Shown here: positions 2,697 to 35,292 of the stretch, one piece after another
Layout of the letters: the number at the start of each line of letters is the position of its first letter
Numbering within the stretch: the stretch's first letter is position 1
Source: Rotaria sordida
Taxonomy: Eukaryota
DNA: 35,797 nt
Direction of reading: 5' to 3'
Assembly (NCBI GenBank): GCA_905250005.1
Contig: CAJNOH010001581.1
Location: forward strand, 1-35,797
Notes under the pieces: generated by a model
The model's input: only the letters and a program-made list of their open reading frames with translations
What the model was told of the DNA's origin: nothing
Database searches by the model: none
Translations under genes and position numbers: made by a program

Positions 2697-2937
2697 ATTT
2701 TTTCCTTTGTTTTCCTTTTTTCCTGCATAAGTTGGTTCATTTTACTTTCTTTACTTCTTATGCATGCCTTATGTAAGTACTTCAGAGTGTCACATAAACA
2801 GTAAAAGCAAAATCCAAAAAAAATGCATCTTTATAGGTTGGAAAAATGAAGTAATTCTTTTCAACAATAAATACGCAGTAAAATCGATTGTAAACACACA
2901 ACTTGTATAGTCTAGAATCGAGTACGTAGATGGCTGC

Positions 2938-3487
2938 GCTGATGCAAATACAACTTGTATCGGCCCCTCGAGAGCTTCTCATGTATTCCGTCCTAATCCT
3001 TCCACGCTGCAAAGCTATCCACATCCACCCTCACGTATCGGCATGTATCCGCTTGTATCGGACCTGTATATAGTCATAGCGTCGTATATACCCCTGAAAA
3101 GCCTAGAATTCACGAAATCTTGTATGGGATGTATCGAGGTGTATTGCCTTGTATCGCCACGTATCGATACAAGCCGACGCACACCAATCGCTATGTATCG
3201 AACCTATGTATAGACATGCCGTGGTATATACCCTAAAAAGCCTACAATTCACCAAAGCATGTATTGCCTTATATCGGCTTGTATCGATACATGGCGGTAC
3301 ATGATTTCGTGAATTCTAGGTTTTTCAGGGATATATACCTCGGTATGGCTATACATAGGTCCGATACAAGCGGATACATGCCGATACGTGAGGGTGGATG
3401 TGGATAGCTTTGCGGCGTGCAAGGATTAGGATGGAATACATGAGAAGCTCTCGAGGGGCCGATACAAGTTGTATTTGTATCGGCGCA
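2938..3487. mobile_element. Near-perfect palindrome (foldback or MITE-like) of about 550 bp, rich in GTATCG/CGATAC motifs, with nested internal inverted and direct repeats
   Basis: 2945-3100 is the reverse complement of 3300-3480; for example 'caaatacaacttgtatcggcccctcgagag' pairs with 'ctctcgaggggccgatacaagttgtatttg'. The inner segment 3100-3320 is also self-complementary ('gaattcacgaaat'/'atttcgtgaattc'). It contains an internal roughly 29-bp direct repeat ('cccctgaaaagcctagaattcacgaaatc' / 'ccctaaaaagcctacaattcaccaaagc'). No ORF is present. Confidence 0.75.
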
Positions 3488-3939
3488 CCCCTCTTATAAT
3501 GTGACTTTGTGGTAATTTATTATCTAGAAACATGAGTAATCCAGCATCTTACTATATTAGCTTTTCGACTTTTATGAGAAAACACTCATCGGTAGCTGGC
3601 ATCGGTAACATCCGCTTGGTTACTGCAAAATAAAAGCAGTTGTGATTTCTTTTCTATGAAAATTGCTGGCTCTGAATAAATGAAGTGCTAAATAATATCG
3701 CATTTATTGGTTAAAACTTTTCAATCTTTCCTTCATTGAGTGTGATTTGCAGAGAAAAAACGCCTTAGCTAACGAGGTAGAAAAATATCTATGAATTTTA
3801 GACAGCAGAATATTGAATACATATTATACTCTTTCTATATAAAAAAATTAATCTGAAAGAATGTTTGTAAATTCAATGAAGTGGATCTGATTCTAAACTT
3901 TTAGAAATATTTTCGCGTAATATTAATCACTCGATTATC

Positions 3940-5566: not shown

Positions 5567-5827
5567 TGGGTGTGTGGGTGTGGGTGTGGGTGTGAGGGTG
5601 TGGTTGTGGGTGCGGGTGTGGGTATGAGGGTGTGGGGGTGGGGGTGGGGGTGGGTGTGGATCTTCTCTTCACCCACACCCACTCCCACACCCGCATCCAC
5701 ACCCACACTGACACCCACACCCACACCCGCATCCACACCCACACTGACACCCACACCCACACCCACTTCCACACCCGCATCCACACCCACACTGACACCC
5801 ATACCCACACCCACACCCCACCCTCAT
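5567..5827. repeat. Large head-to-head telomere-like repeat block. A degenerate G-tract at 5567-5660, an 11-bp spacer, and a C-tract at 5671-5827 organised as 3-4 copies of a roughly 36-bp higher-order unit 'cacccacacccacacccgcatccacacccacactga'.
   Basis: Direct reading. The 36-bp periodicity is also visible as a 12-aa periodicity ([12 protein letters not shown]) in the artefactual ORF 5509..5814. Confidence 0.9.
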
Positions 5828-6739
5828 CTCGTTGTCAAAATATCCCTTATGGGGTAATTTGTCCAAATACTCTTAGTTCATATTTTATTTTATTGATGGC
5901 TTTTCCATTTGTTCTATGTGTAATCAAGGCCTCCTTTATCATTCATCATATCCAGTCTGTTTCATTCGCCATAGTTTTCACTCGAGAAAATTCGAATGTG
6001 TATCTATAATCAGTGGTATGCTTTGATAATTCAAAATTTAAGTCGTAATTTATAATCGCTTTCTAATGTTCAGACATTCTTTGACCGCGAAATCAGTCAA
6101 CTTCTCCAACATACACGAAATCAGAATGTCCATAACGAATTTTGTAAGCAAGTTTCTTCAATCTTCTAGCTTCATCATAGCCCTTCAGAAGTCACAGAAA
6201 GTTTTTCTTTCGAATGAAATAGCTCTTGGACTCCAGATGAAACTGCACATTTGATAGTAGCTTAGTGAAAAATTTTCTCAGTCGAGAAACAAAACTTACC
6301 GTTTAGTATCCATATTGCGAAATGTTAAAGAAAGTAGTCTATTTCGATACGGTTGGAATAGTTAGTTGGTTAAGAGGTTTAACACTAAAATTTCCATCTC
6401 AAGTGCCATGGCAGATGACATGAGAGGGGTAACCACTTGCTTTCAAAGTCTCTGTCAGTCTCTTTTTCTCTTCTTTAGCTAATTTGAATGAGTAGTTTAG
6501 CCTCTCAATGCAAACTGTGAATGTTTTCACCAAAACTACTTTGTACTTTCTGATTTAATTCGAGTCCTAAGTACGATAGTGGTCTATATATGCAGGTTTC
6601 CTATATAGTGTTGATATGTATTCGATGATCTTTCATTTTGTCAGCACGTCAAAGAAAAGGAGATGGGTGTTTGTCTGAAATTCAATTGTGAACTTTAATT
6701 CTGGATGCCAATGATTTATTCTATCCATTTATTCAAGTA

Positions 6740-7095
6740 TTTTATTGTGTTCGATATCGAAGTCAGCAATGATATCATCAACATATCAATACCAAATCTT
6801 GAGTGGCTTTTTCGAAAAACGTTGAAGTTTCTCCTTCAGTTTTAATATAACAATATTCACAAGAATTGGCGCAAGGGAACTTCTCATGGCAACACCATTC
6901 ACTTGTTTATACTTTTTGTCAAGAAATCTAAATCGAAGGTTTCATACAGCCAAATTCATTAAGTCTTACATTTGACTTCTATACTATGTCATATCTGATG
7001 TAGTATTCTGTTTATAGATCATTTAAAGAACATATTCAATTGTTTCAGTCACTGATATATTTGTAAACAAGGATTCCACATCAGATGAAACCATA
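6740..7095 (-). mobile_element. Decayed retroelement reverse-transcriptase fragment with in-frame stops
   Basis: The minus-strand translation contains the RT motifs 'SSDVESLFTNISVTETIEYVL' (RC of about 7027-7090), 'SSLAPILVNIVILKLKEK' (RC of about 6853-6890) and 'YVDDIIADFD' (YxDD catalytic box, RC of about 6755-6790). The motifs are in the correct N-to-C order but are interrupted by stop codons. The family cannot be determined by eye; a Penelope-like/Athena or non-LTR origin is a guess. Confidence 0.5.
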
Positions 7096-9984
7096 GTCTG
7101 AGTCATGAAAGATCTAAACGCTCGGATTCTCGTCACAAAATGATACGAATCTTTTATGAATGAGGTTGGTTGTTGAGTTCGATGAGAGACAAGGAATGAT
7201 GCTATATATTTGGATAATTCGTTGATAATTGTATGCTTTGATAGAAGAAATTGTGAGCCTTTAGTTGTTCACACATGACAGACAGCGATGCGAATATGGA
7301 ACGGAGTCGCCAAAAAAAAAGTGACTAATACATTATTTTATATAATTGCCTAAGGACCTTGTTCATTTCTATTTCTTTCTTTTCCATTGAAGACGAACTA
7401 GGAAAGAAGCGACATTGCTTCCCGTTAAGAATTGCTCTTCCTATGCTCTCATAATCAATCTTATTGAAAACAATTATACAGTTTCCCGTGCTGCTTTATA
7501 AATTACAGTAGGCGCGGTGCATTTAAGAGTTCATCGGGTACGTTCAGTATCTTCTTCTTGCAAACGCTTTTCATCAATTGCTGAGACGCAGAAAAAATGT
7601 GTCGATAGAGAGTACAAAAGACGGATAGGTGATACGTGGGTAGTAGTTGGAACGAATTTCGTTCAACGTCAGTTTGAAAATCTACGAAATTGATTATTCT
7701 TTGTTTCATGGAAAAATCCTAGACATGTGCAAGAAGTCTTTCCTCAACAGAAGATAAGATGTATGAGGATACATTATGAGCAAGTTTGTAAATATTGGAC
7801 GTCTAGTTCTCACTAGCAGGTCCATGAGCAAGTCTCTCGAATTTAATCTCATCTATCATCGAAGCACGATTATGTTCTGTCATAGTCTTTTATCAAAGAA
7901 CAAGATTGGTCGAGTAGAAATCAACCGTAGGCACTTTCTTTTCCAACCAGTCTATACACGATTTTAGTTCTTGATTGAGGCAAATAGTCACCTTGTAACG
8001 TACTTCATATTCGTGTTGTAGACATTGACGTTTGAAAAGCAGAGCTTGCTCAGCCAAAATATAAGATTGTTTCAACGCATGAAGGTGAATAATAGATTGA
8101 ACTAGACTATACATTAACCAAGTGTAGGGATTCTCAAAGCCTAATTAATAGGAACTGAGCAGTCTTCAGCTGTCAGACGATATTGTCCTTTTCTTAGCGT
8201 ATACCGAAATGATTCATACAACTGCAGACTTGTGTTCAAAAACCTAAATGCGAAAGCAATACTTTCAGTAGATAGAGCTCGCGCAACTCATTCAAAGAAC
8301 ATAAAAAAATGTTTGAACCACAGAGGTCTCCCACACTCATTTTTCGACTAGTGAGAAGATTGACACAAATCGTGCATAAATGTCAAACACGAGATCCTCA
8401 TATTCTAACATAAGAAAATTGAACGGCGCATTTTCTCGTTATGATAAGAGTACGTGCGTAAAAACATAGTTGTTTGAGGTTGTTTGTGGAATGGCAAGAC
8501 AATGGACATGGAAACCACGCTGATTCAACTACTTTTATGTTGGTCGAATAAACCACATAAGCTTTAGTAGGCTATTGGTAGATGGTTGGATCTTTTTTAT
8601 GAGTCCACAATTATATCAAGTATTTTATTTTCTGAGAGAAAGCGTCGTTCACTAAAATATTTCTGTCTGCTGTCTGCTGAAGGCTATCAGAGAGTAGCTC
8701 TACTCCAGCTATGGAATAAACTGTATTTTTTAAAAGAAGCTTGACTAAAAAGTAATCGTAGATAGATAATGCAAATTTGATGCTGGTATACATATTTTTG
8801 TTTTCATTTTTATAATTATTCAAAAAAAACCTTGGCCACGGACAATCATAATCTGTCAATCTGGCTCATGGGTTAGTTTTTCTTTGAAATCAATAATTTT
8901 TTTGAATAAGGTCCTTTACGTGTAATAAAATTCCTCAGAAGATATTAGTTATTGTGAAATACAAACTTGACTTCTACGTTTTTTTTTCTTTTGTATTTTT
9001 AATGAAGAAAAAATTCATCAAAGTGGCGTTTTAGAGAATCTGAATTCCGTTTTCCTTCTTTCTGAGCAGCAGAGCTATGTTAATGAAATTATGAACATGA
9101 ATCTTTTTCTATCTTTTTGTTCGTTGATAGTAATCAGAAAGTATCCAATTGATAATTAGAGGAAAATAAGCAATCTTTTGCGAAAAAGCATCAGAGCATA
9201 CTAAGAACTTTGAAGACAAATGAAGACATGGCAAATGGCGACCATCCATCTTCAGAGTAATAGAATATTGAGGGCCACTTTATGCTTGAACTTACTTCAA
9301 TCGCCAGAATCACGATACCAGCGTATTCATTCGCAAGCAGCGTTAAGAATCAGTGTGGATTCTGGGCTTAGATGTGACTGTGTAGTTCCTTTAATAAATG
9401 ACCAGCTCTAGTAGACTTTAAAAAGATATCAATGGCTTACTCAAAGGTGTTTTTCTAGCAATATAGATTACATAGTTCATATTTTCTTACGATTTTCATA
9501 ATTTCAGATGGTTTTCAGGATATTAAATAAAGATTTCGATTGCAACGAATATCATTGGTTGAATGATTTTTGTGTTTATTTTTCAAAGAAAGGATTTCGT
9601 TTCCAGTGAATTGTCGAAACTCCCCGCATGGCATTCAATAAGATTGTAATTTTCGAGCCATTGTCAACATTGATATTGAGGCGACAAAGAGGTACTTATC
9701 CAGAATCGGTTAGCTGATAAAGTGGTCTGAATTACACTCTGCCATACTTTATTTAACCGATCGAAATTCGACAGAATGATCTAACGAGGGAACCTCTTCA
9801 AGTACTAAAAAGCATTTGACCTCAAATTTTGTCCACAGATAGGAGATGTATATACTAGAAAAAGTCTAAAAGGATATCGACCCAAGTAGCGATTTGGCTG
9901 AGATAGCAGCGTTTTACTATAATTTTTCTGTAGAACCTCACGTTGCTAGTAAAATTAAAGTTTTGAATTTTGATCTGAAACTTT

Positions 9985-10930
9985 GTCTACACGGTTGGAA
10001 AAAATATTATTCCAGGGGGTAGCGCTATAATTTCAAATAGAAGACATAATAAATTTTATATCAAATGAAAGCTCGTTAAAAATGGGGTTTATTGGTATTA
10101 AATAGTGAGGGTTATGAAAACCTTTTAATGTCGGGCTTAATAAATTTTCAGAGATTTTATACTTTTTTTGGGATGGAAACTTAAAGTACTAGTGATTCAA
10201 GAATGGAGTAAAATGTTTTTCTTGAATATTTTTACACGGTTCGATAGAGCTCGTCAAGCTCTATAAAACTGTATACATTAAAAAAATTTTAAGACACTTT
10301 TTTTGCGATAAAAAATTCAAAAAACTATTTGGAAAATCTTAGAAAACATGAAAAAAATTCATATTTTTCATGTGGAAGAACAACACTTACTTTTTCAATA
10401 AAAGTAGCTTTTTTCATTGTTTTTACTCCGTCAGGCGTTTCGAAACATACTCATTAGACGCAGCTTTTCACACTGCATCGAACGAGTATATTTCGAGACG
10501 TCTGAGGTAGTAAAAACAATGAAAAAAGCTACTTTTATTGAAAAATTGAGCGTGTTTCTTCAATTTGAAAAAAAAAAGAGTTTTTAAATATTTTTGAAGT
10601 TTCCCGAGTAGTTTTTTGAACTTTTTATCTCAAAAAGATGCCTCAAAAAATTTTTAACATGCACAGTTTTGTAGAGCTCAACGAGGTCTATCAAACCATG
10701 TAAAAATATTCAAGAAAAAAAATTGACTTCGTTTTTGAATCAGTGGCACCTTGATTTTCCACCCCAAAAAAATATAAAATTTCTGAAAACTTCTTAAGTT
10801 TGACATTAGAAAGTTTTTACAAGCCTCACTATTTAGTATCAATAAACCCCATTTTTGACGAGCTTTCATTTGATATAAAATTCATTATGTCTTCTATTTG
10901 AAATTATAGCGTTACCCCCCTGGAATAATA
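9985..10930. mobile_element. Near-perfect palindrome of about 950 bp (foldback or long-TIR non-autonomous DNA element). It is flanked by TA dinucleotides, and a telomere-like repeat abuts its right end.
   Basis: The terminal sequence 'acacggttggaaaaaatattattccagggggtagcgctataatttc...' at 9985-10110 is the reverse complement of 10828-10930 ('...gaaattatagcgttaccccccctggaataatattttttccaaccgtgta'). The inner segments are also mutually complementary, with a centre near 10470. The flanks read ..tgtcTA|CACGG ... CCGTG|TAcatcc. There is no ORF of 64 aa or more inside. Confidence 0.8.
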
Positions 10931-10936
10931 TTTTTT

Positions 10937-10955
10937 CCAACCGTGTACATCCACA
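10937..10955. repeat. Short C-strand telomere-like tract (acatccacacccacaccc) immediately after the palindromic element
   Basis: Read directly from the sequence. Confidence 0.7.
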
Positions 10956-11354
10956 CCCACACCCTTTATGAATAGTTATTGCACAATAAGCGTACTATTT
11001 AGATGAAATCCATTTTGTGTTTCTTTTTCACTTTCATTCTGCTTTTTTTTTCGAATGTCGCAGTAGAATAAAAACACGACAAGTGAAGTCAACAACAACG
11101 GCATTCTCCGATAGTTTGAAAAAAAATTTGGGTTTTTTTAAATTAAACATTTACAATGACACATGAACATTGGTATAGTATTTCTTTATTTTTTTTTATT
11201 TAATATCTACTGATTTTCTAGTGCTCAATTCTATTCTGATTGGCAAACAACGGTTCATTGTTCATTTGAAAATGTGTTTACTCCAACGATTGCTCATATA
11301 GTCGGTGCTAATCTTCAAAATATATTGGGTATTAAACACTTTAGACCAGATGCA

Positions 11355-14300
11355 ATGGCTAGAGATGCCTCATCACCATGTATATTTACATGCCAAAGAC
11401 GAGAAGCAAACGATATTCGTGATAAACTTATCCAGGTGACGACTGAATCGTATTCACATATTTGGTTTTCAATGCAAACAGAACCATTTCATTTTATTTA
11501 CAATAGGCGTTCAATGGTGGATGATGATTCAATGAAAGTCAAACAATATCCTGTCTTTTTCTATTTTGGTTCTATGTATACTTATAGTACTTTTCATATT
11601 CATAGTAAACCACACCCAGTTATTTACGATATTGACATAACCAAATGGAATCAGGCACCAGAAACAATTCGTATCATGTCTAAAGATAAAACGAGACAAA
11701 TCTTTATACCAGTGAAATGGATACAAAAAAAAGTGTTGGTCAATACAAATGGACGACCATGTGTGGTTTTAATGTTAAAATATTCTGTAAAAATGAAAAG
11801 AAAAGCAACAATCAATGGTAAATCAAAGTATGAAAGGTAAGGTAGATAGATCAATTGATAATACGACTGTTGTTTTCCAGACAGATGCTCTCGTGACACT
11901 TGTTCCTTGGCAACAGTTGTGGGTGTGGCTGTGGTAGACGTGGATGTGGGTGTCGGAGGTGCAGCGACTATAAATGTTCATCAGTTTTTTGCCCACTCAC
12001 ACACATATCCGTGCTGCAAAACTGAATGTCCGAGAAGTAGTTGTCACCGAGGAGCAAGTGTCACGGGAATATCTGTCATGGAATCGTTTTATATTATAGT
12101 TCCATGAAATCATACATCAGTAATCTTATATTTCATATCTCTTCTTTTAGAGTATGTCGAATAGATGAAGAAGGACTCGAAACAATCGTATCGAGAAGTT
12201 CTGATCTTCTTCTTTCGTTCAATGAAATTGACCATACATATGCTTTTCTGTCAGAGCTTACAAAAGAAACCGATAATTATCGCAATAAATTTAAAATCTA
12301 CTTTGTTTCACTTAAACAAGTTCAATGTGATAATAATAATAATAAACAACCTTTTAATTTGCCTCGATCAGCATCACATAAACAACATTATGCATTGAAA
12401 ATGCTTTATTCTATGGGTTATGTGTTTCAAGATAAATATTCAAAACAAATGCATGATCAATTTGTAGCATTTGATAAAGAATTATTCAATAATATGTGCT
12501 ATTATCTTAAAGAAAAACTCGAAGAAAATCATTGTTATATGTTAAATCGTATATTCGATGAATACAACACTTATCTAAAAGAGAAACGTAAAAATGAACA
12601 AGAATATTCTGTACAAAAACTTCCCTATTGTATTGGTTGTATTTCGTTGACACCATTACGAATTATCTATCATCGAATGGAATCATCAATTGAAAATCGA
12701 GCATTAAGAATGAGACAATTCGGTGGTGAAGATATGTTTTTATTGGTACATATTCGAGAAGAAGATAATCAAGCATTAAAAGATTTTGATTCATCAATTA
12801 AATGTCGACTTAAATCAAAAATGATGCAAGGAATTAAAGCTATGGATAGAATCTATCGTTTATTTGGTACATCAACTAGTCAATTAAAAGAAATGTCATT
12901 TTGGTTTGCAGCTATTGAAGATAAACCAATTGAAAAAGCTTGGGAAGAATTAGGAAATTTTTCGTCCATAAAAAATGTTGCCAATTATGTAGCACGGATT
13001 GGTCTTTATTTCTCAACATCTCATGCAACAGGAGTACGTGTATATTTTCTATTTTTGATAGAACAAACAAAAAAATCCAAACAATATTTTTTATTATCAT
13101 ATTTTAATAGATTTCATTTAAATATGAGAAAAACTTCTCACCCAACATGCAATATGTAGCAACAACTATTGATGATATTGAGACAAATGATAAAAAATAT
13201 TGTTTTACTGATGGCATCGGAAAAATGTCATGGGGTATTGCTGGTCTAGTTGCTCCAAAATTAAATATTAAATTGGAATCAAGAGATGATATACCGTCAG
13301 CTTATCAAGTTCGTATTGCAGGATGTAAAGGAATGCTCGTCATTGATCCTAAATCGAAAATGAATGATTATTATATAAAAGTTAGACCATCGATGGAAAA
13401 ATTTCAATCTGATAATTGGGAATTAGAAGTATGCAAATATAGTGGACCGTGTAAGGTTTCAAAAACTTAGTAGACAAATAAATATTATAACAATAGATTG
13501 TATTTGTTTTTATAGTTGAACTTAGATTCAATAATCAAGTGATCATGCTTTTATCGGATTTGCGTAATCCTGATGCAGTTTTTGAATCCTATCAAAATGC
13601 AAGTTTGACTAATTGTTTTGCACAAAATGAAAAGGAACAGCAACGAAAATTGAAGTTTGCATCAGCTAAGGAAGATTTATTAAAAAATAGAATTCCATTA
13701 CCGTTAAATGAAGCACGAAATATGTTTGGTGTTGCCGATGAAACTGGTACATTAGAATATAGTCAAGTATTTATTCAGTATAAAAATCTTGATCCAAACA
13801 TTGATAAAACATATATTGTTGTAACTGGTATGTTTGTTTTTTTTTAATTATTTTATAATTCTACAAAAAAATTACATCAATTATGTATGTCTATAGGTGA
13901 TGTATTAGTAGCGAAAATGCCGTGCTTACATCCTGGCGATTTTCGTCGGTTGACTGCTATCGATGTACCTCAATTGAGAAAATGTATACGTGATTGTATT
14001 GTATTTCCAACGAAAGGAAAACGACCTCATCCGAATGAAATGTCTGGATCTGATCTAGATGGAGATCAATATTGGGTGAGTCTTAATGAAACTAACTGAT
14101 GATTCACTATTTCAATTAAAATACTATAATAAGAAAGAAAAAACTATTTTATTTCGGATACTTTATAAAAGCAAAAATTATTATCAAGATTTTGACTAGC
14201 ATGATGTCTTAAACGAATGTTGTCTTATTTTTATGTTTGTACTTATAAGTTTTGTAGACAGATTAGTACAAGAAATAACAATGCTAGATATCTTCTTACT

Positions 14301-16483
14301 ACAGATCAACTCGAGTTTTCTTTTCAAACTTAAATTTGATCTTTAAAACAAAGCATACATGAAAGTACGGATGAATATAAGAAAATAATACATAATTTTT
14401 GTGATCTCATTTATTTACTATCTTTGATAAGATTGTGTAAAGCTTTTATTACAAAGAAAATTCAATTAGTACAATTGCAACCTTAGGTACTATGTTATTG
14501 AAAATGTTAAATGTCTTTGTATTAGGTATATTGGGGAAAACAATTGGAAATCAGAGAAATGGATGAACCATTATCATATGAATCTTTACCAAAGAAAGTA
14601 GTACCTAAAATAACATATGAAGATATAATCGATCATATCGTTGAGTCATTTGGAGCTGGAAGTCAAGGTATTATTTGTGATGTACATTTAGCAATTGCTG
14701 ATTCTCGTCCAAAACGTACCAGATCAGATGAATGCCGATATTTAGCTGAATTATTTGCACGTGCTGTTGATGCACCAAAAACAGGTGAAATTATTGAATT
14801 AGATAAAGTTTATAAATTAAGAGCAGAATTTTGTCGAGGATATCCAGAATTTATGAAAAAATACGATCAACCAATACGTCAATCGCAGAGTATTTTAAAT
14901 AAATTATTTTTAAATGCAAGAAGATACTTTTTTACGCATCATGAAACAGATCTTCAAATAGCATCATCAAAACCTATTTTACGATCCGATTCATCTACTC
15001 CTAAAGTCTGTGCACAACGAAAAACTGGAGCAAGCGTACAAGACGAAGAGTTTCAAGAATGGCTTATATCTCTTAACATTGATACATCAGACAATACAAT
15101 CAGTGAAGCTAAATCTATCTTAGCAAACACCAAAGGGAGAAAAAGCTCAATTAAAAGTCTTGATACTGCAAGCAGTATAGTTGAGGTGGACTCTTCGACA
15201 CCATCACTAGAATCATCAATCACAGGAAATAAAAAGAAAAGAAATATTCAATTGAAAAAAGAAGAAGCCGAAGACAATCAAACACTCTCAACAAAAGAAG
15301 AAAAACTTCCTGTCGAACCAAAACCATCTGGATCAGCTTCAACAAAAGATAAAACACCAAAACAAACTAAAGCAAAAGCAGAATCTATTAACACATCTGA
15401 TGAACCTTTTAAGTTAACCAATTCTGCTACGCCATCAGTTTCACTACAACTATCAGCAAGTGCTTCGTCGATTTCTCAGAATACTCTTAATCGAAATATT
15501 GTTTTCAATGGTATGACAGCAGTAACCAATCGGCTCAAATGGGTTCAAATAGGTAGTGATGTTTTTACAGTTGATCTGGATTCAAAAGGGAATAGTGAAA
15601 GCAATGCAATAGATAAAATAGTTAATCTTATGCTTGATCTAAGAAAAACAGCATCTTTTTCGACTGACACTAAATTAACACTTACAATATTATGGGGTGA
15701 ACTTAACATTAGAACTACACAAACAATGAATGATACAAAACCAAAGAATATAAAAGAACTTGTCCAAGTAATCAAAGATAATAATGATATTGAAATTTTA
15801 TTTAGAGAATCTGATATCAAAAGTATTGTAAAAGAACATGTAAGTATCGACACTTATTTAGTATACAATAACAAAAAACCTTTTAATCTTAGGAACCATC
15901 TGGCAAATCAGCAGCAGTCTATGTCCTTATTTGTAGATGTTTGGTTATTACACCAAACGATATAGCACTCATATTTGATGATAAAAAAAAATTAAAGAAA
16001 ATTTCATTTGCTTCTCGAGAGTGGATTTGTGCTGTTCGAGGCGGTGAAGCTATTACGGATAGTTACTATGAAATTCGATGTACAACCAAAGAAATCGATT
16101 CAGAACATGAGTCATTCTCTAACTATTTGAAAATGTTGTTCAAAGATCTGAACTCACTTGATATTTTAACTGGTAAAAGTCCACAAATTTCAATTGCTAG
16201 CGAACAATTTATACCAGGAGTACAAATTATTTCTTTACAACGATTGGTTCGTTGTGATTATGTCCTTTTAAGTCAACGAAAGTTATATCAAGGTCAATTT
16301 AGTACACTGACAAATCTCGAGTGGGCTTTTTATCATGTTACACGTATTTCTACAGAAAAGATAAATGGTAAAATTTCAACACGAGATGTAATTGAATTTC
16401 AGGCAACACCAATTCAACTGGCAAAAAAATGTGAACAAGACTTGAAAAATTTATGTGATTTGGCAAAGAGATTTTTTGACTAA
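11355..16483 (+). CDS. Cellular RNA-dependent RNA polymerase (RDR/RdRP family) with a long C-terminal extension. Proposed exons: 11355(first ATG; frame open from 11271)-11836, 12151-13033, 13111-13450, 13516-13827, 13897-14075, 14526-15839, 15893-16483.
   Basis: The catalytic exon encodes 'VLVAKMPCLHPGDFRRLTAIDVPQL...GSDLDGDQYW|VYWG', which is the eukaryotic RdRP DxDGD motif. Upstream exons carry 'RIYRLFGTSTSQLKEMSFWFAA...NVANYVARIGLYFSTS', 'FTDGIGKMSWGIAGL...PSAYQVRIAGCKGMLVIDP' and 'FNNQVIMLLSDL'. The downstream exon has 'HLAIADSRP...CRYLAELFARAVDAPKTGEII'. All seven proposed junctions keep the reading frame and use GT..AG with introns of 53-450 bp, for example 13034-13110, 13451-13515, 13828-13896 and 15840-15892. 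The track ORFs 12041..13159, 13147..13470, 13539..13847, 13887..14099, 14544..15965 and 15941..16483 are pieces of this gene. The last roughly 500 aa (Ser/Thr/Lys-rich low complexity, then a globular-looking terminal exon) have no similarity I recognise. The 5' end is uncertain; an upstream exon is possible. Confidence 0.85.
11917..11960. repeat. Degenerate telomere-like G-tract (ttgtgggtgtggctgtggtagacgtggatgtgggtgtcgg) lying inside RdRP intron 1
   Basis: Read directly from the sequence. Confidence 0.6.
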
Positions 16484-19876: not shown

Positions 19877-22800
19877 ATGAAACAAGCTACTACCTCTACT
19901 TCATTATTATCACCATTCAATGGCAAAACGATTGTACTCGAACTTGGCCATGAAATAGGTTTCAAAGCTAAACAAGAATTGATCAACTATTTACGAGAAC
20001 AGCAAGCACATATTTCATATATTTTGACAGCTAGTGTATGTTCTCCTTTTATTCCATTAAACATGTGATTAAAGTTGACTTATTTAGACTGATTATGTTT
20101 TGGCTATGAATAATGTAGATAGCTACAAGATACGTCGTGCCAAACAGCTTGGCTTACCAATAGTCAATGTTGAATATGTATACAGATGTCGTTGTTTGCC
20201 ACCTGGTCAAACATCAATTGATATTAGTAAATTTATTATCAAGTCAGCTGAAGATCAAGAAAATTTTACAAAAACCGGCACTATTTCCATGGAAGGTATT
20301 AGTAGTTCTTTTAAAAATCATGTCAGACATCCTTGTTCATTAGAATGTCGAGTAAATGTGACTAAAATCAATAAATTCGATTTGACTAAAATCAAATTAT
20401 GGAATTCGGACGATGTCGATTTGCCTGGTTTCGATGAGTTGACACATTGTGAGATTGGCAAATGGGCCATTTTCAAAGTAGATTTGTATTAATTTCTAAC
20501 TATTGTTCTCTTATATTTCTACTGTTCATAATAGGAAACCAACGATAATTCAAATGTATTTTTTGTTCTTGAACTTCAAGTTATTCCAGAACAGTACTAC
20601 GATCGAACAACGAGTGATTATCGACTACGATTTCGATATGAAAAACAGACTATTATTGGTGAAGAACCACAACACGATAAAAAAATTTCGATACAATATG
20701 CATTCAGTGATGATCCAAACGAACAACAACAATTGTTTGCATCGTACTATTATCGAGTGGCTAAAATGTCACGTATAACACGAATTCGTGAGATGTTACC
20801 TAATAAATTAGGATCAAAACTATTGTTACGTGTAAGTAAATAACATTGACAAAGAGAAACTATTTTCCAAAAGAAGATCAATTATTTTTAGTCTTTATTT
20901 ACTCATCGTATCGATACACAGATACTTGATGAGAACGTATGTCAATTGATTGAATCGATTTGGTTAGAATCGATTGGTGATCTGAATAAAATGTTGAGCA
21001 TATCACCCGAATCGATCACTCTCAAAACGGTATACAAATTCATTTTGTTACATTCATATTAGTTTGTGCTCTAAACAACTAAATAGATCATTGAAGCCGA
21101 AGCTGCACTGCTTGAACTCAAATCAACCAACAATTCTGCTGCTGCACTTCGTTTCTATTCACTTATACCACATCGACAAGAATACAATATCGATCTCATC
21201 AAGAATCGTCGAGCGTTAACCGAAAAAATAGACTTATGTCAAGTATGTCTATTTCTTTTTATTTGTTTTGTTTGATCTTTTACCTGTTCAGATGCTTCGA
21301 GATATGCTTACTGTCAACGAACTGACCAATTGGAATGTTAAAGCACCAATCGAAGCTAAATATCGAGCATTGAAATGTTATATTGAAACAGTGACTAGTT
21401 CAACACCCGAATTTAAGAATATTGCTAACATCATTCAATCGTCGACAGATAGGTGAGAAAATTTAATATTCAATTTCATGATAATAGCTTATTTGTTTTT
21501 GTTCATTAGCGATGAACAAATTGTCATTCACAATGTATTCAGCGTGGCTAAACAGACAGATGCACTCAATTTTTGTACAACATTATCTCATCAACGACAA
21601 CTATTTCATGGATCGAAATATGTCAATTTTCTTGGGATTCTTTCACGGTAAAATATTCATTTAATCCTCTAGACAATATTATGTGTACATTTAGTGGTTT
21701 GGTCATGCCTAAAATGGTAGTAGAAGACTTAGGTGTTGTACGTACTGATATTGGTTGTCTCGGTTATGGGATTTACTTTTCTGATTCTGCTTCGACTTCT
21801 TTAAAGTATACAACAACAAGCATAGTACGACCAGGTCGTCGTTTGTTATGCATTTGTCAAGTAGCACTTGGCGAAACAGCTAACTATTATTCATTTTCAC
21901 CGACTCTCACCAAACCTCCGGATGGTTTTCATAGTACGCATGGAGTTAAACGAACAGAAGATAATCATTCAATGTTTACTGTAAGTAGTTAGTGTTATTG
22001 TGACCTATTAAAGTATATTTTCAAAAATTTTGGTGAATTTCGTAGAACCAGCGAACCAAATTTTTTCGTCAATACCAGTGACTAAGCATTCATTTATGTC
22101 AGAGTTCATTGGTAGAGCTTGGAAAATCCCTTGACTATTGAATTCATAATTAATAGTGCAATCATAAATTTGATATTTATCGAAATAGGATAATGAATAT
22201 GCGATCTATCAACTCGATCAACAACGTTTACTCTACATTGTGGAAGTTTCATGGGCACCGAAAGATAATCTCAATATCGAATTAGAACGATTACCAATTA
22301 TTCATCATCAACAGCATGCATTACAATTGAGTGAACATGGTAATGATGATTCTTTTTATTAGATTAGAATTCAATTATCAGATTATCTGTTACATTCTAG
22401 TCGAAGTTCCCATGACAATCGATAATGAAATCATTGAAATAGCTGAACAAGACTATGGTTTAATATGTCCATCATCAGGAAAACTTGTACCACTTAAATC
22501 ATTTCATATTCGTGCTCAAATTGTTGATGTTACAGTTGAAGTAATTATATCTATGTTTCCATTGAAGTCAAATACTAATTCATCATATTTCTATTTAATG
22601 AAAAAGGTTGTTCTCTATCAAGTCTATCACAATATGAGTTCGAAACCGATTGAAGCTAAATATGTATTTCCTCTTGATGAAAATTCAACTGTATGTGGTT
22701 TTGAAGCACATATCAACAATAGAATTATCAAAGGTGTCGTTAAAGAAAAAGAACAAGCCAAACGAGAGTATCGAGAAGCAATTCAAAAGGGTCATGGCGC

Positions 22801-25800
22801 CTATTTAATGCATCAAGAAGAAGCTCAAGTGTTCAGCGTTGCTGTTGGTAATTTGCCAGCGAACAATGAAGTTATCATCAAAATAACCTATGTTGCCGAA
22901 TTAGAAATCGAAAATGGCGATATTATTTTTCGTCTTCCAGCCAAAATGACTTCATGGCAATCGAAAAAAGCGATCGAAAACAAAGATCAAACAATTCTAC
23001 GATCTATTGGTATTGTCGATGAAAAAGTTGAATTCAGTTTCAAAGCATCGATTCGAATGCCATACAAAATAGTGAAATTATTTTCGCCAACACATCGTCT
23101 TCGTCGAAAGTTAACTGATTGTATAGCCATGATTGAACTTGTCGATAATATCTTACTTGATCAAGATTTTATTCTTTCGATCGCACTCAACAGTCCTAAT
23201 TTACCTCGAACATCAAATGAAACATTGTCATTGGATGACAACAGTGGAACAACTGACACATCGAACAATCATAATTCTCAAGCATGTATGCTTACCTTTT
23301 ATCCACGATTCGAAACATTGACGAATTCGAACGAACAAATTGAAATTATTTTCATTATTGATGTATCAAATTCAATGGATGGTAGTCATGTACAACAAGC
23401 TAAACAGTTAACTCATTTGTTTCTTACTAATTTGAAAGTTGCCGATGAGAATACATATTTTAATGTAATCACTTTTGGATCAGGTAATAATGTTATATTT
23501 AACAGCGTTATTTTTACTATTCAAATTGGAACTATTTAGATAATGATGAATGTTTTCCTATATCAACACCAATCACAAAAGAAAATCTTGATAAAGCCAA
23601 ACATTTTGTTTTGGTTAGTAGTTTTTCTTCAATCTTCATTTTGTATATAAAAGTATTCTAGCATTCTCTTGTCCATCGTGGTAATACGGATCTATTTGCT
23701 GTTCTTCATCGTTATTCATTATTACCATCGTCATTATCATCGAAATTCGGTCGTCAATTCATTCTTCTATCCGATGGACATATTCACGATCTGAATTCGA
23801 TTCTTGCTCTACTCAAATATCGACCGACTATGCGTCGTGATCGTTTATTTACATGTTCAGTTGGTAATATTGCAAACAAACATGGTTTGAAACAGTTAGC
23901 TAATGGAGCAAATGGAGGTGGTCTAACAACGATATTCGATTCGAACTATCGATCAAAATGGAAAACAAAAGTATTGAACATTCTTGAACAGATCCGACAA
24001 CCTTGTGTTACAAGTATATCTATCGATTGGCATGGTCATTTGGATGAAGAACAAAAATTCAATATGCAAGCACCGAAAATGATTCGATCTTTGTTCAATG
24101 GAATGCGACTTACTGTTTATCGATTCATAGAAAATTGTCACAAGGCAACATTGACGGCTACTATTGATGAGCAAGAATTTGTTACGACTGTATTTAGTAG
24201 TACGATGACAACGACCAGAGGGCGTATTCTACACTGTCTAACTACTCGAGCGATCATCGATGATTATGACAACGGACTATTGGATGTAGATGAGAGCGAA
24301 AACGAATTGATCAAAGCTCAATATCGACGAGATCTCATCGATCTCAGCATCAAATATTCTGTTGTCAGTGCATACACTAGTTTTGTTGCCATCGAAGAAC
24401 GTGATATCAAAACGGATATAAAAACTCTTCAACCAGGTTAGTAAAAAAAGTTGAGATTTTATTGACTAAAGTCATGGGTTGATTAGTAACAGAATAGCAC
24501 AAGAGTAAAAATTTATCTACATCACTATTGAGACATGTACTTTCTGTTATAGGTGTTCGTCTGCCTGAAGTTATGCTGAAGCATGATGTGGACTTACTAC
24601 CATACATGGGATGGGATGGTGATATATCAAACTTGACTTTAATCAAACATAAATTGTTCGATGCGCGTATTTCACTCGAATGTGCATCGATTCAGGGCAA
24701 AAAAGAAACAGTTGCTGATGTTGAAAAACTTTGTCAAAAAATTTCCTATCGAGCAGGTGGTGATGCAAAATTTGGTATGATGATGACTATCATACGCACA
24801 TATCGTTATTCATTGAATGAATACGATAATGCAGATGAACTCGAAGACAAAATGCGAAAGGGTATGTTAATTGATCTAGGATCAAAATTTAAATATATCG
24901 AATTTGAAAAATGAATAGATATAATGACCGAAATGATTAGTGCAACGACAGAAGAACGGCAAGCATTACAACAAAAATGTCTGGCGAACAATTTGATAAT
25001 CACAAATAACGAATTGTAAGTGAAAGAAAGGAAAGAAACATTCAAAAAAAAATGTTGGTGTATTCGTTCTCTTACAGTGAATCAATGGCTAAATACGATG
25101 GTAAGAAGGGAATTTGATCATTCTACTTTGGAAACCTCAATCGAGAGAAAGAAAGTGATTCTATAATTTAGACCAAAATGAAAAAATAAGAATATGCTAT
25201 TCATCATCAAAGCAATGGACAAAAACGAATCTCATGATTATTTTGGTTTCTGTATATCATAGCATCTGAGCAATTCGATTAAGACAGGATAGAGTAAAAA
25301 GTACTTTTTCTATTCAACTTTTAATCGTAGATTTATGTGTCCTCTTTCTATAACGTAGTATAATTTCAACAGAAGGGATCCAAGAAAAATCTTAATAATT
25401 GCATAACATGTCCACACTACGTATATTGATCTTCGACAAACTTACGAGGAAAGGTCACGAACTGATAAATCGCTTTTTAAATTTTAGTCATGCCAATTTG
25501 TAGAGCTTGTTGAGTTATTAACTAATATGATAAACATTCAGACCAACAAATGGGGCTGTAGAGTAAATTTCTAATAATCTAAGTTTCTATTAACCTATCC
25601 ATACCCCTATAGAGCTCCTAAGCACTCCTATAGGACTACTATACGGTATGGACAGATTAATTGAAATTTAGATTATCAGAAATTTACTCTACAGCTGCAT
25701 TGTTGGTTCGAATGACTATTATATCAGTTAATAACTCAACAGGCTCTACAAATTGGCATGACTAAAATTTAAAAAGCGATTTATCAGTTCGTGGCCTTCC

Positions 25801-26334
25801 CTCATCAGTACGAGGGTGAAAATGAATAACCATTGCACGTACTCAATCATCATATTGCATTTTTGCAACTCTAACGGTAGTAGAAAATCATTTTAGAAAG
25901 CTTTGGTGAAGTGACATTAAACGGAATTACTTGGATGTTTTGAAAGAATTATATAGTCTAACTTTAAAGTCTAACCTATACTAAGTAGAACATTTAAGAT
26001 TATCAAAATGAATACCATGTGAAAAAAGTGAAGATCGTTTCCAAAACAATATTTATATTTCATTTTCATAGATTTGGTTCGTATGCTTGGAGCTGATTTC
26101 AAGGATTTAACAACAGTTGAACAAATGGAAAAGATAAGAAAACTATGCAGCATGGTGCGTCAATTCAATGCTACATATAAGAATAATGCCGAAAATTGAA
26201 TATTTCTTTTTCAGTTAGATGAAGTACCAGATTTTATTGGTAAATTATTTATGCCAGCAACAGCAAACCTATCACCAATACCTGAAAAGCAACTTCCAAC
26301 TACAGATAACATGAAGATAGGGGTGCGTGAGTGA
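19877..26334 (+). CDS. PARP4: PARP4/vault-PARP-like poly(ADP-ribose) polymerase with BRCT, a possible WGR-like segment, PARP alpha-helical regulatory, PARP catalytic, VIT and vWA domains plus a C-terminal region. Proposed exons: 19877-20035, 20088-20477, 20535-20831, 20892-21029, 21087-21242, 21292-21452, 21501-21647, 21695-21980, 22189-22339, 22401-22540, 22607-23483, 23540-23613, 23662-24436, 24552-24860, 24919-25015, 25078-25100 (micro-exon), 26072-26154, 26215-26334.
   Basis: BRCT: 'FNGKTIVLELGHEIGFKAKQELINYLREQQAHISYILTAS|TDYV..AKQLGLPIVNVEYVYRC'. Regulatory: 'LDENVCQLIESIWLESIGDLNKMLSISPESITLKT', 'ALRFYSLIPHRQEYNIDLIKNRRALTEKIDLCQ'. Catalytic: 'RQLFHGSKYVNFLGILSR|GLVMPKMVVEDLGVVRTDIGCLGYGIYFSD...LLCICQVALGE' and 'DNEYAIYQLDQQRLLYIVEV', which keeps the PARP H-Y-E triad. 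VIT: 'KPIEAKYVFPLDENSTVCGFEAHINNRIIKGVVKEKEQAKREYREAIQKGHGAYLMHQEEAQVFSVAVGNLPANNEVIIKITYVAELEI'. vWA: 'IEIIFIIDVSNSMDGS...ITFGSD..FPISTP', 'RGNTDLFAVL', 'ILLSDGHIHD', 'SAYTSFVAIEER'. Every proposed junction is frame-consistent with GT..AG and introns of 48-208 bp, except a 971-bp intron (25101-26071) that carries a palindromic element. The track ORF 22331..23539 hides a 66-bp in-frame intron (22541-22606) whose removal restores the VIT consensus. The 3' end is uncertain: the stop at 26332-34 coincides with a possible GTGAGT donor. Confidence 0.8.
25447..25815. mobile_element. Near-perfect palindrome (foldback or MITE-like) of about 370 bp inside the long intron of the PARP4-like gene
   Basis: 25450-25620 is the reverse complement of 25630-25812; for example 'cacgaactgataaatcgctttttaaattttagtcatgccaatttgtagagc' pairs with 'gctctacaaattggcatgactaaaatttaaaaagcgatttatcagttcgtg'. 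The centre lies near 25625. No ORF is present. Confidence 0.8.
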
Positions 26335-33941: not shown

Positions 33942-35003
33942 ATGAGTACTTCTTTTTGTTTATTTAAATCAGTGTCAACACAACTCTATCAGAAATCGAT
34001 CAATTGGGACAATCGTGCCCAAGGTCAATATACAGATGCTATGGCCAAAGCTGATTTTGGTTCGGTCAGCGGATGGAAAAACGATCGTGCATCGATCTCA
34101 GACGGGAAATTACGTATCACTTTACGAAAAAATGCATTGGGTGGGGAAAGCGGTATCATATCCAACACAAGAATCCCAGATGGTTCTGCATATGAGTTGG
34201 ATTTTGACGTTCGGTTTCATAGTCAATTCGACTGGAGTCGTGGTGGAAAAGTTGGTTTCGGTTTTGGCATCGGAAATCGAAATACAGGATGCAATCCCCC
34301 AAAAGATGGAGCGGGTGGAACTCTACGTTTAATGTGGTACAATGATAATAAACGAGTCTATTTCATTCCATATGTTTATTATTATGGTATGCCAGGGCAG
34401 TGTGGAGACAAGTTTGGCAAATCGTATCCATCAACTGGTATGAGTTATTATTCTTAAGGAAAGTTATATTCAGAATCACCGCTAGTTTGAAGTAGTCACT
34501 GTTCGAGATTACTTCTCCATTCGACATGCTTTTGAGCACGGATTATCCCCATAGAGTATCGAAACACAACCGAAAAGTCTTTAAAATTTCTTACCAGATC
34601 ATTTGATGATTCAGTAAAAAATGTCATCAATGATTGCGAAAGGGTGAATATAAAAACGTACTCTTTCTTAACTTTAGGTAGTATTGAAAAAGGCAAGTTG
34701 TACAGAGTTCATATGTATGTCAAATCAAACACTGGTAATAACGCCAATGGACACGTCCAAATAAAAATCAACGGAGAAGTGCTAATTGATCAGAGCATCC
34801 GGTGGACAACCAATGACAGTAAACGACTTATTAACAACTTGTCTTTTCACACGTGAGTTTTATTTCAGAATACTTTTGTTATAAGTACTTTATTTGACTT
34901 TTTTCAAAATAGATTTCGTGGAGGAAGCGAAGATCATTGGAAATCCAACGTTGATAGCATGATTTACTATGATAATTTGTCTGTCAGACAAATTAGTAAA
35001 TGA
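33942..35003 (+). CDS. Small secreted-looking beta-jelly-roll (concanavalin-like) protein, possibly polysaccharide-lyase-like. Exons 33942(or 33973)-34437, 34677-34852, 34913-35003. An alternative 5' mini-exon 33782-33803 ('MKLFTTT') would splice to 33973.
   Basis: Track ORF 33942..34457 ('...WDNRAQGQYTDAMAKADFGSVSGWKNDRASISDGKLRITLRKN...GFGFGIGNRNTGCNPPKDGAGGTLRLMWYNDNKRVYF...') continues through GT..AG introns 34438-34676 and 34853-34912. The downstream exons read 'G SIEKGKLYRVHMYVKSNTGNNANGHVQIKINGEVLIDQSIRWTTNDSKRLINNLSFHT|FRGGSEDHWKSNVDSMIYYDNLSVRQISK*'. Phases match: 1 then 1, and 2 then 2. The composition is Gly/Asn/Trp-rich. The family assignment is a guess. Confidence 0.6.
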
Positions 35004-35153: not shown

Positions 35154-35292
35154 ATGGGTGTGGGTGGGTGTGGGTGTGGGTGGGTGTGGGTGTGGGTGTA
35201 GAAACGGAGACGTCGCCACCCACACCCACCCACACTCTGTACAGTGTGAATATTTAGTCGATCCACAGAGATTCACACCCACACTTATACCC
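35154..35292. repeat. Head-to-head telomere-like hairpin. G-tract at 35154-35199, loop 'gaaacggagacgtcgc', C-tract at 35217-35236, and a second short C-tract at 35272-35292.
   Basis: Read directly from the sequence. Confidence 0.85.

Follow-up and report, generated by a model that had tools for sequence, protein, structure and literature searches.

A 960-bp stretch (9988–10947) located upstream of an RNA-dependent RNA polymerase (RdRP) gene of Rotaria sordida is probably an old, non-coding foldback Tc1/mariner-like MITE, which came to lie next to the gene through a lineage-specific rearrangement; we put the probability of this reading at about 0.8. The whole stretch of DNA analysed, hereafter the window, comprises positions 1 to 35,797 of contig CAJNOH010001581.1. 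The initial annotation had mentioned a simple foldback transposon, or MITE, as an alternative to a hairpin-RNA locus. This alternative is borne out by the Tc1-like TA-flanked termini, the non-coding character of the element, the recurrence of both its terminus and its inner module elsewhere, and the presence of two further palindromes in the window.

The inverted repeat extends over the whole element, which measures 960 bp including the flanking TAs, the element proper occupying positions 9990–10945. Direct reading and a repeat scan give the layout TA/CACGGTTGG…CCAACCGTG/TA, and with the flanking DNA the arm ends read …tgtc/TA/CACGGTTGGAAAAAATATTATTCCAGGGGG … CCCCCTGGAATAATATTTTTTCCAACCGTG/TA/catcc… (slashes mark the element boundaries). 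The left flanking TA (9988–9989), a putative target-site duplication, is followed by the outer left arm with the terminal inverted repeat CACGGTTGGAAAAAATATTATTCCAGGGGG (9990–10189; about 95% match in the outer 120 nt), the inner palindromic module (10190–10753, bounds approximate, centre at 10464–10472), the outer right arm with the right terminal inverted repeat (10754–10945) and the right flanking TA (10946–10947). None of these features has a defined strand. Pairing ends beyond the TAs, where c at 9987 and c at 10948 stand unpaired.

Gapped global alignment of the left arm with the reverse complement of the right arm yielded 401 matches, 76 mismatches and 6 gap columns, corresponding to 83% identity, and self reverse-complement BLAST gave 82.9% over 965 columns (E = 0). 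Identity by alignment column is 93–97% in the outer 120 columns, 65–85% in the interior and 95% at columns 401–440. The termini are perfectly complementary over about 27–32 nt (32 with the TA counted), and the inner arms (10300–10463 and 10473–10636), separated by a 9-nt spacer, are 79% complementary. The earlier description of a 950-bp near-perfect palindrome is thus right as to the self-complementarity of the whole element, which measures 960 bp, and wrong as to its perfection, the arms matching at only 83%. The predicted RNA fold of the element has an energy of -517 kcal/mol, against -178 ± 7 kcal/mol for dinucleotide shuffles (z = -50), with the outer ~110 nt of the stem forming a nearly unbroken duplex. 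The inverted repeat is far above chance level. ORFs that overlap the element reach at most 63 aa. No tandem subrepeats were found within 9988–10947, and the 9 nt on either side of the palindrome show no duplication. Comparison of the window with itself revealed no relation of the outer flank of the left arm to local sequence, and self-BLAST found no further copy of any part of the palindrome elsewhere in the window.

The ends of the element begin with CA followed by an A-rich run, in the layout TA/CACGG…CCGTG/TA. Their Tc1-like form, TA/CACGGTTGGAAAAAAT, resembles, and no more than resembles, the ends TA/CAGTGGCTCAAAAAAT of an element with transposase ORFs on L001, a contig of another rotifer. 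TA is present on both sides of the element and is self-complementary; because it is its own reverse complement, the TA/TA pair is indistinguishable from two extra bases of the inverted repeat. On the basis of the TA flanks and the terminus resemblance, the element most probably belongs to the Tc1/mariner group. The Tc1-like element of L001 carries ORFs with DDE_3 and HTH_Tnp_Tc3_2 domains and 231-nt terminal inverted repeats, with ends reading TA/CAGTGGCTCAAAAAAT, and the same contig also contains a 240-bp palindromic MITE with ends TA/CAGTGAAAAAAAGG. The termini of the Tc1-like elements in L001 and L027 differ from those of the 960-bp element. The window contains no transposase genes.

Relatives of the terminus were sought by scanning metagenome contigs for the exact terminal 20-mer, which occurred at five loci. 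One of them is a true relative, a single AT-rich rotifer-like locus present in two samples (L007 = L009); the others are chance matches of 20–24 nt, GC-rich or otherwise one-sided. In L007/L009 the terminal 52–53 nt are 92–94% identical to those of the 960-bp element and are TA-flanked, and the L009 copy likewise finishes with …CCAACCGTG/TA, its other end being truncated. The flanking DNA is unrelated to the window, and the interior is of a different sequence, yet self-complementary too. The telomeric tract that adjoins the element in the window is absent beside the terminus in the L009 copy. Prokaryote genome contigs, searched with two patterns, gave no matches, and viral contigs gave only chance matches of 18–19 nt. 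No second full-length copy was present in the metagenome, prokaryote and viral contigs scanned, and no empty insertion site was found in the sequences compared.

The second recurrent part lies deeper in the element. Element positions 208–305 and 659–753 match positions 14436–14529 and 14798–14895 of L027, a contig of the same other rotifer as L001, at 75–81% identity (E down to 1.5e-15). In L027 the matching segments make up the outermost ~120 nt of a 530-bp palindrome with arms that are 99% complementary. Since the ends of the inner module match the ends of this different, young palindrome, the 960-bp element is, as far as this homology goes, a composite, with an outer module of ~200 nt per arm surrounding an inner palindromic module of ~560 bp. 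An IR/DR (Sleeping-Beauty-like) architecture was considered separately, as the terminal 9-mer TACACGGTT recurs at 10233, and was rejected: the L027 equivalent reads TATATCGTT. Because of this difference, and because L027 homology begins about 45 nt further out than the recurrent 9-mer, the copy at 10233 is probably neither a second binding site nor an element end.

The recurrence of the defined Tc1-like termini on independent contigs also bears on the possibility that the palindrome is an assembly or sequencing artefact, arising from a chimeric fold-back read or from mis-joined haplotypes. A precedent exists in the 2013 draft of the A. vaga genome, where large palindromes later proved to be assembly artefacts (PMC8494291). 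Those artefacts were at the scaffold level, unlike the present palindrome of less than 1 kb, and artefactual fold-backs give near-identical arms, while the arms here are separated by 76 substitutions and 6 gap columns. Such an origin has next to no probability.

The two arms have not diverged evenly. The K2P distance between them is about 0.18 overall and about 0.05 in the outer 120 nt, so that the outer arms are far better kept than the inner ones; the same is seen in the unrelated palindrome at 2928–3494. Since the outer arms are better preserved than the inner, uniform decay of a once-perfect palindrome does not fit. The interior was therefore probably an imperfect palindrome already at the time of insertion, and the need to bind transposase therefore probably preserved the likeness of the termini along the family lineage. 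Judged by the ~17% difference between the arms and its neutral pattern, this copy is not recent. A transposase encoded elsewhere would bind the conserved terminal ~30–55 nt (CACGGTTGGAAAAAATATTATTCC…), and, by what is typical of the family, a Tc1/mariner-type transposase would excise the element and reinsert it at a TA, which becomes duplicated. Mobility of this exact 960-bp composite is what we infer from these features. The composite could have arisen in a master copy, either by insertion of one palindromic MITE at the centre of another or by duplication of one arm through template switching, and in both cases then have moved as a unit; it could also have formed in place.

The gene on the right is a multi-exon RdRP gene (11157–16483, plus strand, 3' limit approximate). 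Matches to Pfam PF05183 were obtained for four ORFs between 12041 and 15965, and the catalytic GSDLDGD motif is located at 14052. By similarity to the NCBI model P0009 of Rotaria sp. Silwood2, the protein starts with MTHEH at the ATG at 11157, followed by an intron. The first coding exon shares 85% protein identity with P0009, the closest homologue. Measured to this ATG, the distance from the end of the palindrome is 209 bp; the 320 bp given originally runs to the first long ORF instead and has to be corrected. Contig L015 of Rotaria sp. Silwood2 is 84% identical to the window at the nucleotide level over positions 10975–11826, and alignment with it delimits a conserved proximal promoter or 5' leader of the gene (10972–11156, plus strand).

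Upstream of the homologous genes the palindrome is missing. L015, L002 and L017 contain no inverted repeats of at least 25–30 nt upstream of RdRP, and L016 has no inverted repeat in the ~200 bp upstream of the gene. L001 carries no related element there, only an unrelated 240-bp MITE about 940 bp before the ATG. Neither a related element nor telomeric dodecamers were found in L017–L026, ten copies of another RdRP locus. No homologue of the gene that follows RdRP in L001 is present in the window.

Between the palindrome and the conserved promoter lies a short interstitial telomeric tract outside the transposon (10948–10964, plus strand), reading CAT-CCACACCCACACCC, also (C)CACACCCACACCC. The tract proper, CCACACCCACACCC, is 14 nt long (10951–10964), or 17 nt with the variant start CAT, and represents the C-strand of TGTGGG, the hexamer repeated at bdelloid rotifer telomeres (PMC7943196, PMC8494291). 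The tract noted earlier as capping the palindrome is thus truly telomeric, although "capped" is too strong a word for 14–17 nt on the right side only. The window contains 39 copies of GGGTGT and 38 of ACACCC, where base composition would predict about 3, and long tracts of the same TGTGGG/CCCACA hexamer are located at 1–190, 2552–2695, 5568–5823 and 35155–35285. TE-rich regions laden with telomeric repeats are typical of bdelloid subtelomeres (PMC2861651, PMC6431247, PMC8494291), and by its repeat content the window is such a TE-rich, subtelomere-like region of a bdelloid genome. A nematode origin of the DNA, suggested by Tc1-like ends next to an RdRP, was rejected in view of the TGTGGG tracts and the match to Rotaria. 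Seven head-to-head telomeric-repeat junctions are also present in the window; they resemble scars left by telomerase healing at two ends or by the joining of one telomere to another.

In the alignment with L015, homology of the window runs from the ATG back to about 10972–10975 and not beyond. Between L015 and L002 the alignment can be carried upstream by at least about another 40 bp (E = 4.6e-5 by BLAST), and the two contigs align with L001 over roughly 100 nt more. As L015, L002 and L001 remain alignable beyond the point where the homology of the window ends, the upstream state of the window is the derived one. Judged from these alignments, ancestral DNA upstream of RdRP is lost within about 8 bp of the tract, about 185 bp before the ATG, and the palindrome is situated on the non-homologous side of this derived breakpoint rather than in the ancestral promoter. 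The tract is oriented as at the left end of a chromosome, with the C-strand on top and the RdRP side retained. A chromosome break in the ancestral upstream region of RdRP may thus have been healed by telomerase, the tract marking the break; telomerase healing or neotelomere formation at breaks has been reported in A. vaga (PMC13564844, PMC3846280).

Only the flanking TA separates the end of the element from the telomeric tract. Such abutment is unlikely to result from random insertion, with a chance of roughly 1 in 1000 over a non-coding stretch of ~5 kb. It could be due to insertion into a TA at the edge of the tract, or to a break at the end of the element that was healed and then rejoined. 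A more elaborate sequence of events, in which a transposase-type break at the element end was healed by telomerase and rejoined, and the palindrome was later co-opted for RdRP-amplified small RNAs against TEs, is a long shot.

The same abutment could also suggest that the palindrome was made in situ, by break repair through a hairpin or template switch linked to de novo telomere addition. The coincidence of its right end, but for the TA, with a telomeric tract and a rearrangement breakpoint would fit such an event, as would the known formation of neotelomeres at breaks in A. vaga (PMC13564844) and the telomeric scars throughout the window. A local origin, however, does not account for the 53-nt TA-flanked terminus of identical type at an unrelated locus on a contig of another organism, nor for the inner module at the ends of another palindromic element, nor for the Tc1-like end form, TA/CA followed by an A-rich run. 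The arms have diverged by 17% while a tract of only 14–17 nt survives, and a left arm whose outer flank is unrelated to local sequence does not point to local copying. We consider this origin very improbable and retain the insertion of a foldback MITE as the preferred reading.

The main proposal of the initial annotation was a hairpin siRNA source placed beside the RdRP as its amplifier: a transcript of the palindrome would fold into a dsRNA of ~480 bp and be diced, and the neighbouring RdRP would amplify the products. The fold predicted for a transcript of either strand is indeed very stable (-517 kcal/mol, z = -50), its outer duplex of ~110 nt is nearly uninterrupted, and only 209 bp separate the palindrome from the ATG of an RdRP with an intact catalytic GSDLDGD motif. 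Bdelloids, moreover, have an expanded RNAi machinery and produce small RNAs against TEs (PMC7943196, PMC3846280). The arms themselves speak against a stem maintained as RNA. In a stem kept as RNA, transition mismatches should favour G:U pairs on the transcribed strand; 25 mismatches keep G:U pairing on the plus-strand RNA and 24 on the minus-strand RNA, with 27 of the transversion type (binomial p = 1), and 17% of the stem positions are mismatched or gapped. The mismatch pattern is that of neutral decay of two DNA arms. The genomic setting argues in the same direction, as the palindrome occurs upstream of none of the RdRP homologues compared and lies beyond the derived breakpoint at which the ancestral upstream sequence was lost. 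Rfam families gave no match anywhere in the window.

Proximity to the gene carries little weight. The palindromes at 2928–3494 (211-nt arms at 90.5%, inner palindrome at 80%) and 25440–25809 (86%), both unrelated to the 960-bp element, bring the number of palindromic elements in the window to three in 36 kb, about one per 12 kb, and any particular gene in such a region has a chance of about 10% of having one in the ~1 kb before it. Bdelloids carry a mean of 38.9 RdRP copies per haploid assembly (PMC7943196). The adjacency of palindrome and RdRP is unsurprising because there are about 39 RdRP genes per genome and ~1 palindromic element per 12 kb. A read-through transcript would fold into a long imperfect hairpin and could yield small RNAs against the element's own family; siRNAs from the palindrome would hit that family, as with any palindromic TE. 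The proposed source-and-amplifier arrangement finds no support in the missing G:U bias, the absence of the palindrome upstream of homologues and its position beyond the breakpoint. A dedicated endo-siRNA hairpin locus is improbable, and a dedicated partnership of the palindrome with this RdRP is unsupported, nothing in the DNA compared here indicating one.

To the left of the palindrome, six-frame translation revealed the decayed remnant of a reverse-transcriptase (RT) retroelement (5850–7166, minus strand). Its RT stretch (7166→6414) contains …NGVAMRSSLAP…YVDDII… and matches RVT_1 with E = 3.5e-6 and 27.3 bits, just below the cut-off of 29.6; this score was obtained for the excised RT stretch alone, a Pfam search of the whole six-frame translation giving no match. 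The RT stretch is followed by a possible GIY-YIG-like one (6122→5889), and by its motifs we take the remnant to be Penelope-like. Its 3' side abuts the telomeric tract at 5670–5823. Derivation of the palindrome from an inverted pLTR junction of this remnant was rejected, since the window contains no second copy and over 2.8 kb separate the palindrome from the RT remnant. Likewise rejected was the idea that the palindrome or the tract is the 3' end of an Athena/Terminon element bearing a hammerhead ribozyme, given that no Rfam match was obtained and that the orientation is at odds with the attachment model. To the right of RdRP, the window contains a vault-PARP-like gene with PARP, VIT and VWA domains and a polysaccharide-lyase-14-like ORF.

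Palindromic MITEs derived from Tc1/mariner elements include Stowaway-like MITEs, Tc6/Tc7 of C. elegans and the "PALTA" families of Repbase. The 960-bp element resembles them in its TA flanks, its termini starting with CA and continuing in an A-rich run, its length of less than 1 kb and its lack of an ORF, as well as in the self-complementarity of the whole element and in termini that are conserved between members while the interior varies. It differs from them in the combination of two palindromic modules, in its bdelloid host and in its site bordering on an interstitial telomeric tract. Drosophila FB elements have arms built of tandem subrepeats and 9-bp target duplications. The palindrome shares with them the long inverted arms and the folding back of the entire element; as it has neither subrepeats nor a 9-bp duplication and is flanked by TA, assignment to the Drosophila FB type was rejected. 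The element at 2928–3494, with reiterated TGTATCG motifs, is nearer to the FB design than the 960-bp palindrome is. Like Drosophila hpRNA and plant inverted-repeat siRNA loci, the palindrome has long inverted arms whose transcript would fold into a dsRNA hairpin; unlike these loci, it shows pairing without wobble bias and is not conserved at homologous loci.

Within bdelloids, foldback-like DNA transposons were reportedly described by Arkhipova and Meselson in 2005, and short interstitial telomeric repeats of bdelloid subtelomeres are said to have been described by Gladyshev and Arkhipova in 2007. A later paper that cites the 2005 work describes foldback-like DNA TEs in bdelloids as insertions that create indel polymorphisms, occurring alongside mariner/Tc, hAT, piggyBac and Helitron elements (PMC2861651). 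The 960-bp element comes from the same host class and resembles these transposons by that description. In A. vaga, whose TE load is small, TIR elements form the largest TE class (PMC8494291). The tract beside the palindrome is similar to the interstitial telomeric repeats of bdelloid subtelomeres, where (ACACCC)n is found beside TEs and captured genes in a TE-rich region (PMC6431247). Unlike the Athena/Terminon case, the palindrome would represent a DNA transposon and not the 3' end of such an element, and no match to a hammerhead ribozyme was obtained.

For the biology of bdelloids, the palindrome is a further decayed foldback MITE among the TEs already known from their subtelomere-like regions. 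It also calls for caution, as a hairpin repeat near an RNAi gene is no proof of function in genomes with dozens of RdRP genes. The terminal inverted repeat CACGGTTGGAAAAAATATTATTCC… defines a MITE family of the Rotaria lineage and may aid annotation, and the composite structure exemplifies modular exchange between palindromic elements. More unusual features of the window are the head-to-head telomeric junctions and the healed break that would have truncated the RdRP promoter. If the elaborate sequence of breakage at the element end, telomerase healing and co-option were true, it would be a natural, sequence-resolved case of TE-induced breakage and neotelomere healing that placed an RNAi gene of an asexual animal in a new regulatory neighbourhood.

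The terminal 9-mer of the 960-bp palindrome at 9988-10947, TACACGGTT, is found again inside the left arm at 10233-10241, 245 nt from the end, with its right-arm mirror at 10694-10702 reading TACATGGTT. The homologous position in L027, on a contig from another rotifer, is not conserved. The internal copy may be a second binding site, a chance occurrence, or a relic end.

The related rotifer contig (L001/L027, ENA ERZ25069412) contains three elements. The first, a 530-bp palindrome (L027 14401-14930), shares homology at its ends with the inner module of the palindrome at 9988-10947; its arms are 99% complementary, indicating a recent element. The second is a 240-bp palindromic MITE (L001 4540-4780) with ends TA|CAGTG…, and the third is a Tc1-like element (L001 2158-3848) with ORFs matching DDE_3 and HTH; its 231-nt TIRs contain a motif repeated in an IR/DR-like layout.

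Two more whole-element palindromes are present in the window, with sequences unrelated to each other and to that at 9988-10947. In the palindrome at 2928-3494 the 211-nt arms match at 90.5%, and a second palindrome, at 80%, lies inside; numerous TGTATCG-like subrepeats make this element more FB-like. The other (25440-25809; 370 bp, 86%) lies directly after the ORFs of a multi-exon vault-PARP/PARP4-like gene (20100-24914), which is located downstream of the RdRP gene and encodes PARP catalytic, VIT and VWA domains.

An isolated telomeric tract of G-strand polarity, TGTGGGTGTGG…TGTGGGTGT, lies within the RdRP gene itself at 11918-11953, between the first long exon (to ~11840) and the next one (from ~12041). 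Since none of the fetched RdRP homologue loci contains two perfect telomeric units in tandem, either as GGGTGTGGGTGT or as its complement, this tract looks like a telomeric insertion into an intron. Beyond the Pfam domain, the gene encodes a long serine/lysine-rich C-terminal extension (14544-16483; ORFs of 473 and 180 aa) that shares only 40-54% identity with homologues. The first homology search returned eight hits, and the low complexity of the extension was probably the limit.

Seven head-to-head telomeric junctions are found in the window, each consisting of a (GGGTGT)n tract followed on the same strand by an (ACACCC)n tract across a gap of ~10-60 bp: 1-79/97-190, 2552-2621/2659-2695, 5568-5659/5670-5823, 17245-17255/17285-17300, 17899-17914/17931-17955, 32959-32970/32992-33027, and 35155-35199/35217-35285. 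The G-strand tract precedes the C-strand tract at all of them, and the reverse order never occurs. Consequently, the stretches between junctions open with a C-strand tract and close with a G-strand tract, a likeness to linear DNA with two telomeres.

The 3' side of a retroelement remnant (5850-7166, minus strand) adjoins the telomeric tract 5670-5823. The reverse transcriptase encoded here is decayed, contains stop codons and shows the motifs …NGVAMRSSLAP…YVDDII… (RVT_1 E = 3.5e-6, just below the Pfam cut-off), and is followed by a possible GIY-YIG-like stretch (DFVYVGEV…); judging from these sequence features, the region is probably the remnant of a Penelope-like retroelement. The 2.1-kb segment 33027-35155, with a C-strand tract of one junction on its left and a G-strand tract of another on its right, contains an ORF (33942-34457) that weakly resembles polysaccharide lyase family 14 (E = 2e-4, under the cut-off) and is a candidate foreign gene.

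The junctions could be scars of breaks at which both ends were healed by telomerase and later rejoined; alternatively, they could result from telomere-to-telomere joins between separate fragments. Under the Athena/Terminon attachment model, tracts would have a single polarity only, and the head-to-head arrangement is left unexplained. No description of junctions of this kind was found in the accessible literature. A mini head-to-head junction, GTGGTGTGGGTGTGGGTG – 20-nt spacer – ATCCACACCC, is present at 2087-2135 of L015, the RdRP-homologue contig of Rotaria sp. Silwood2 (CAJNWK010009205.1), ~620 bp 5' of the start codon (ATG) of the RdRP gene. Its presence in a second Rotaria genome indicates that the head-to-head motif is not unique to the window.
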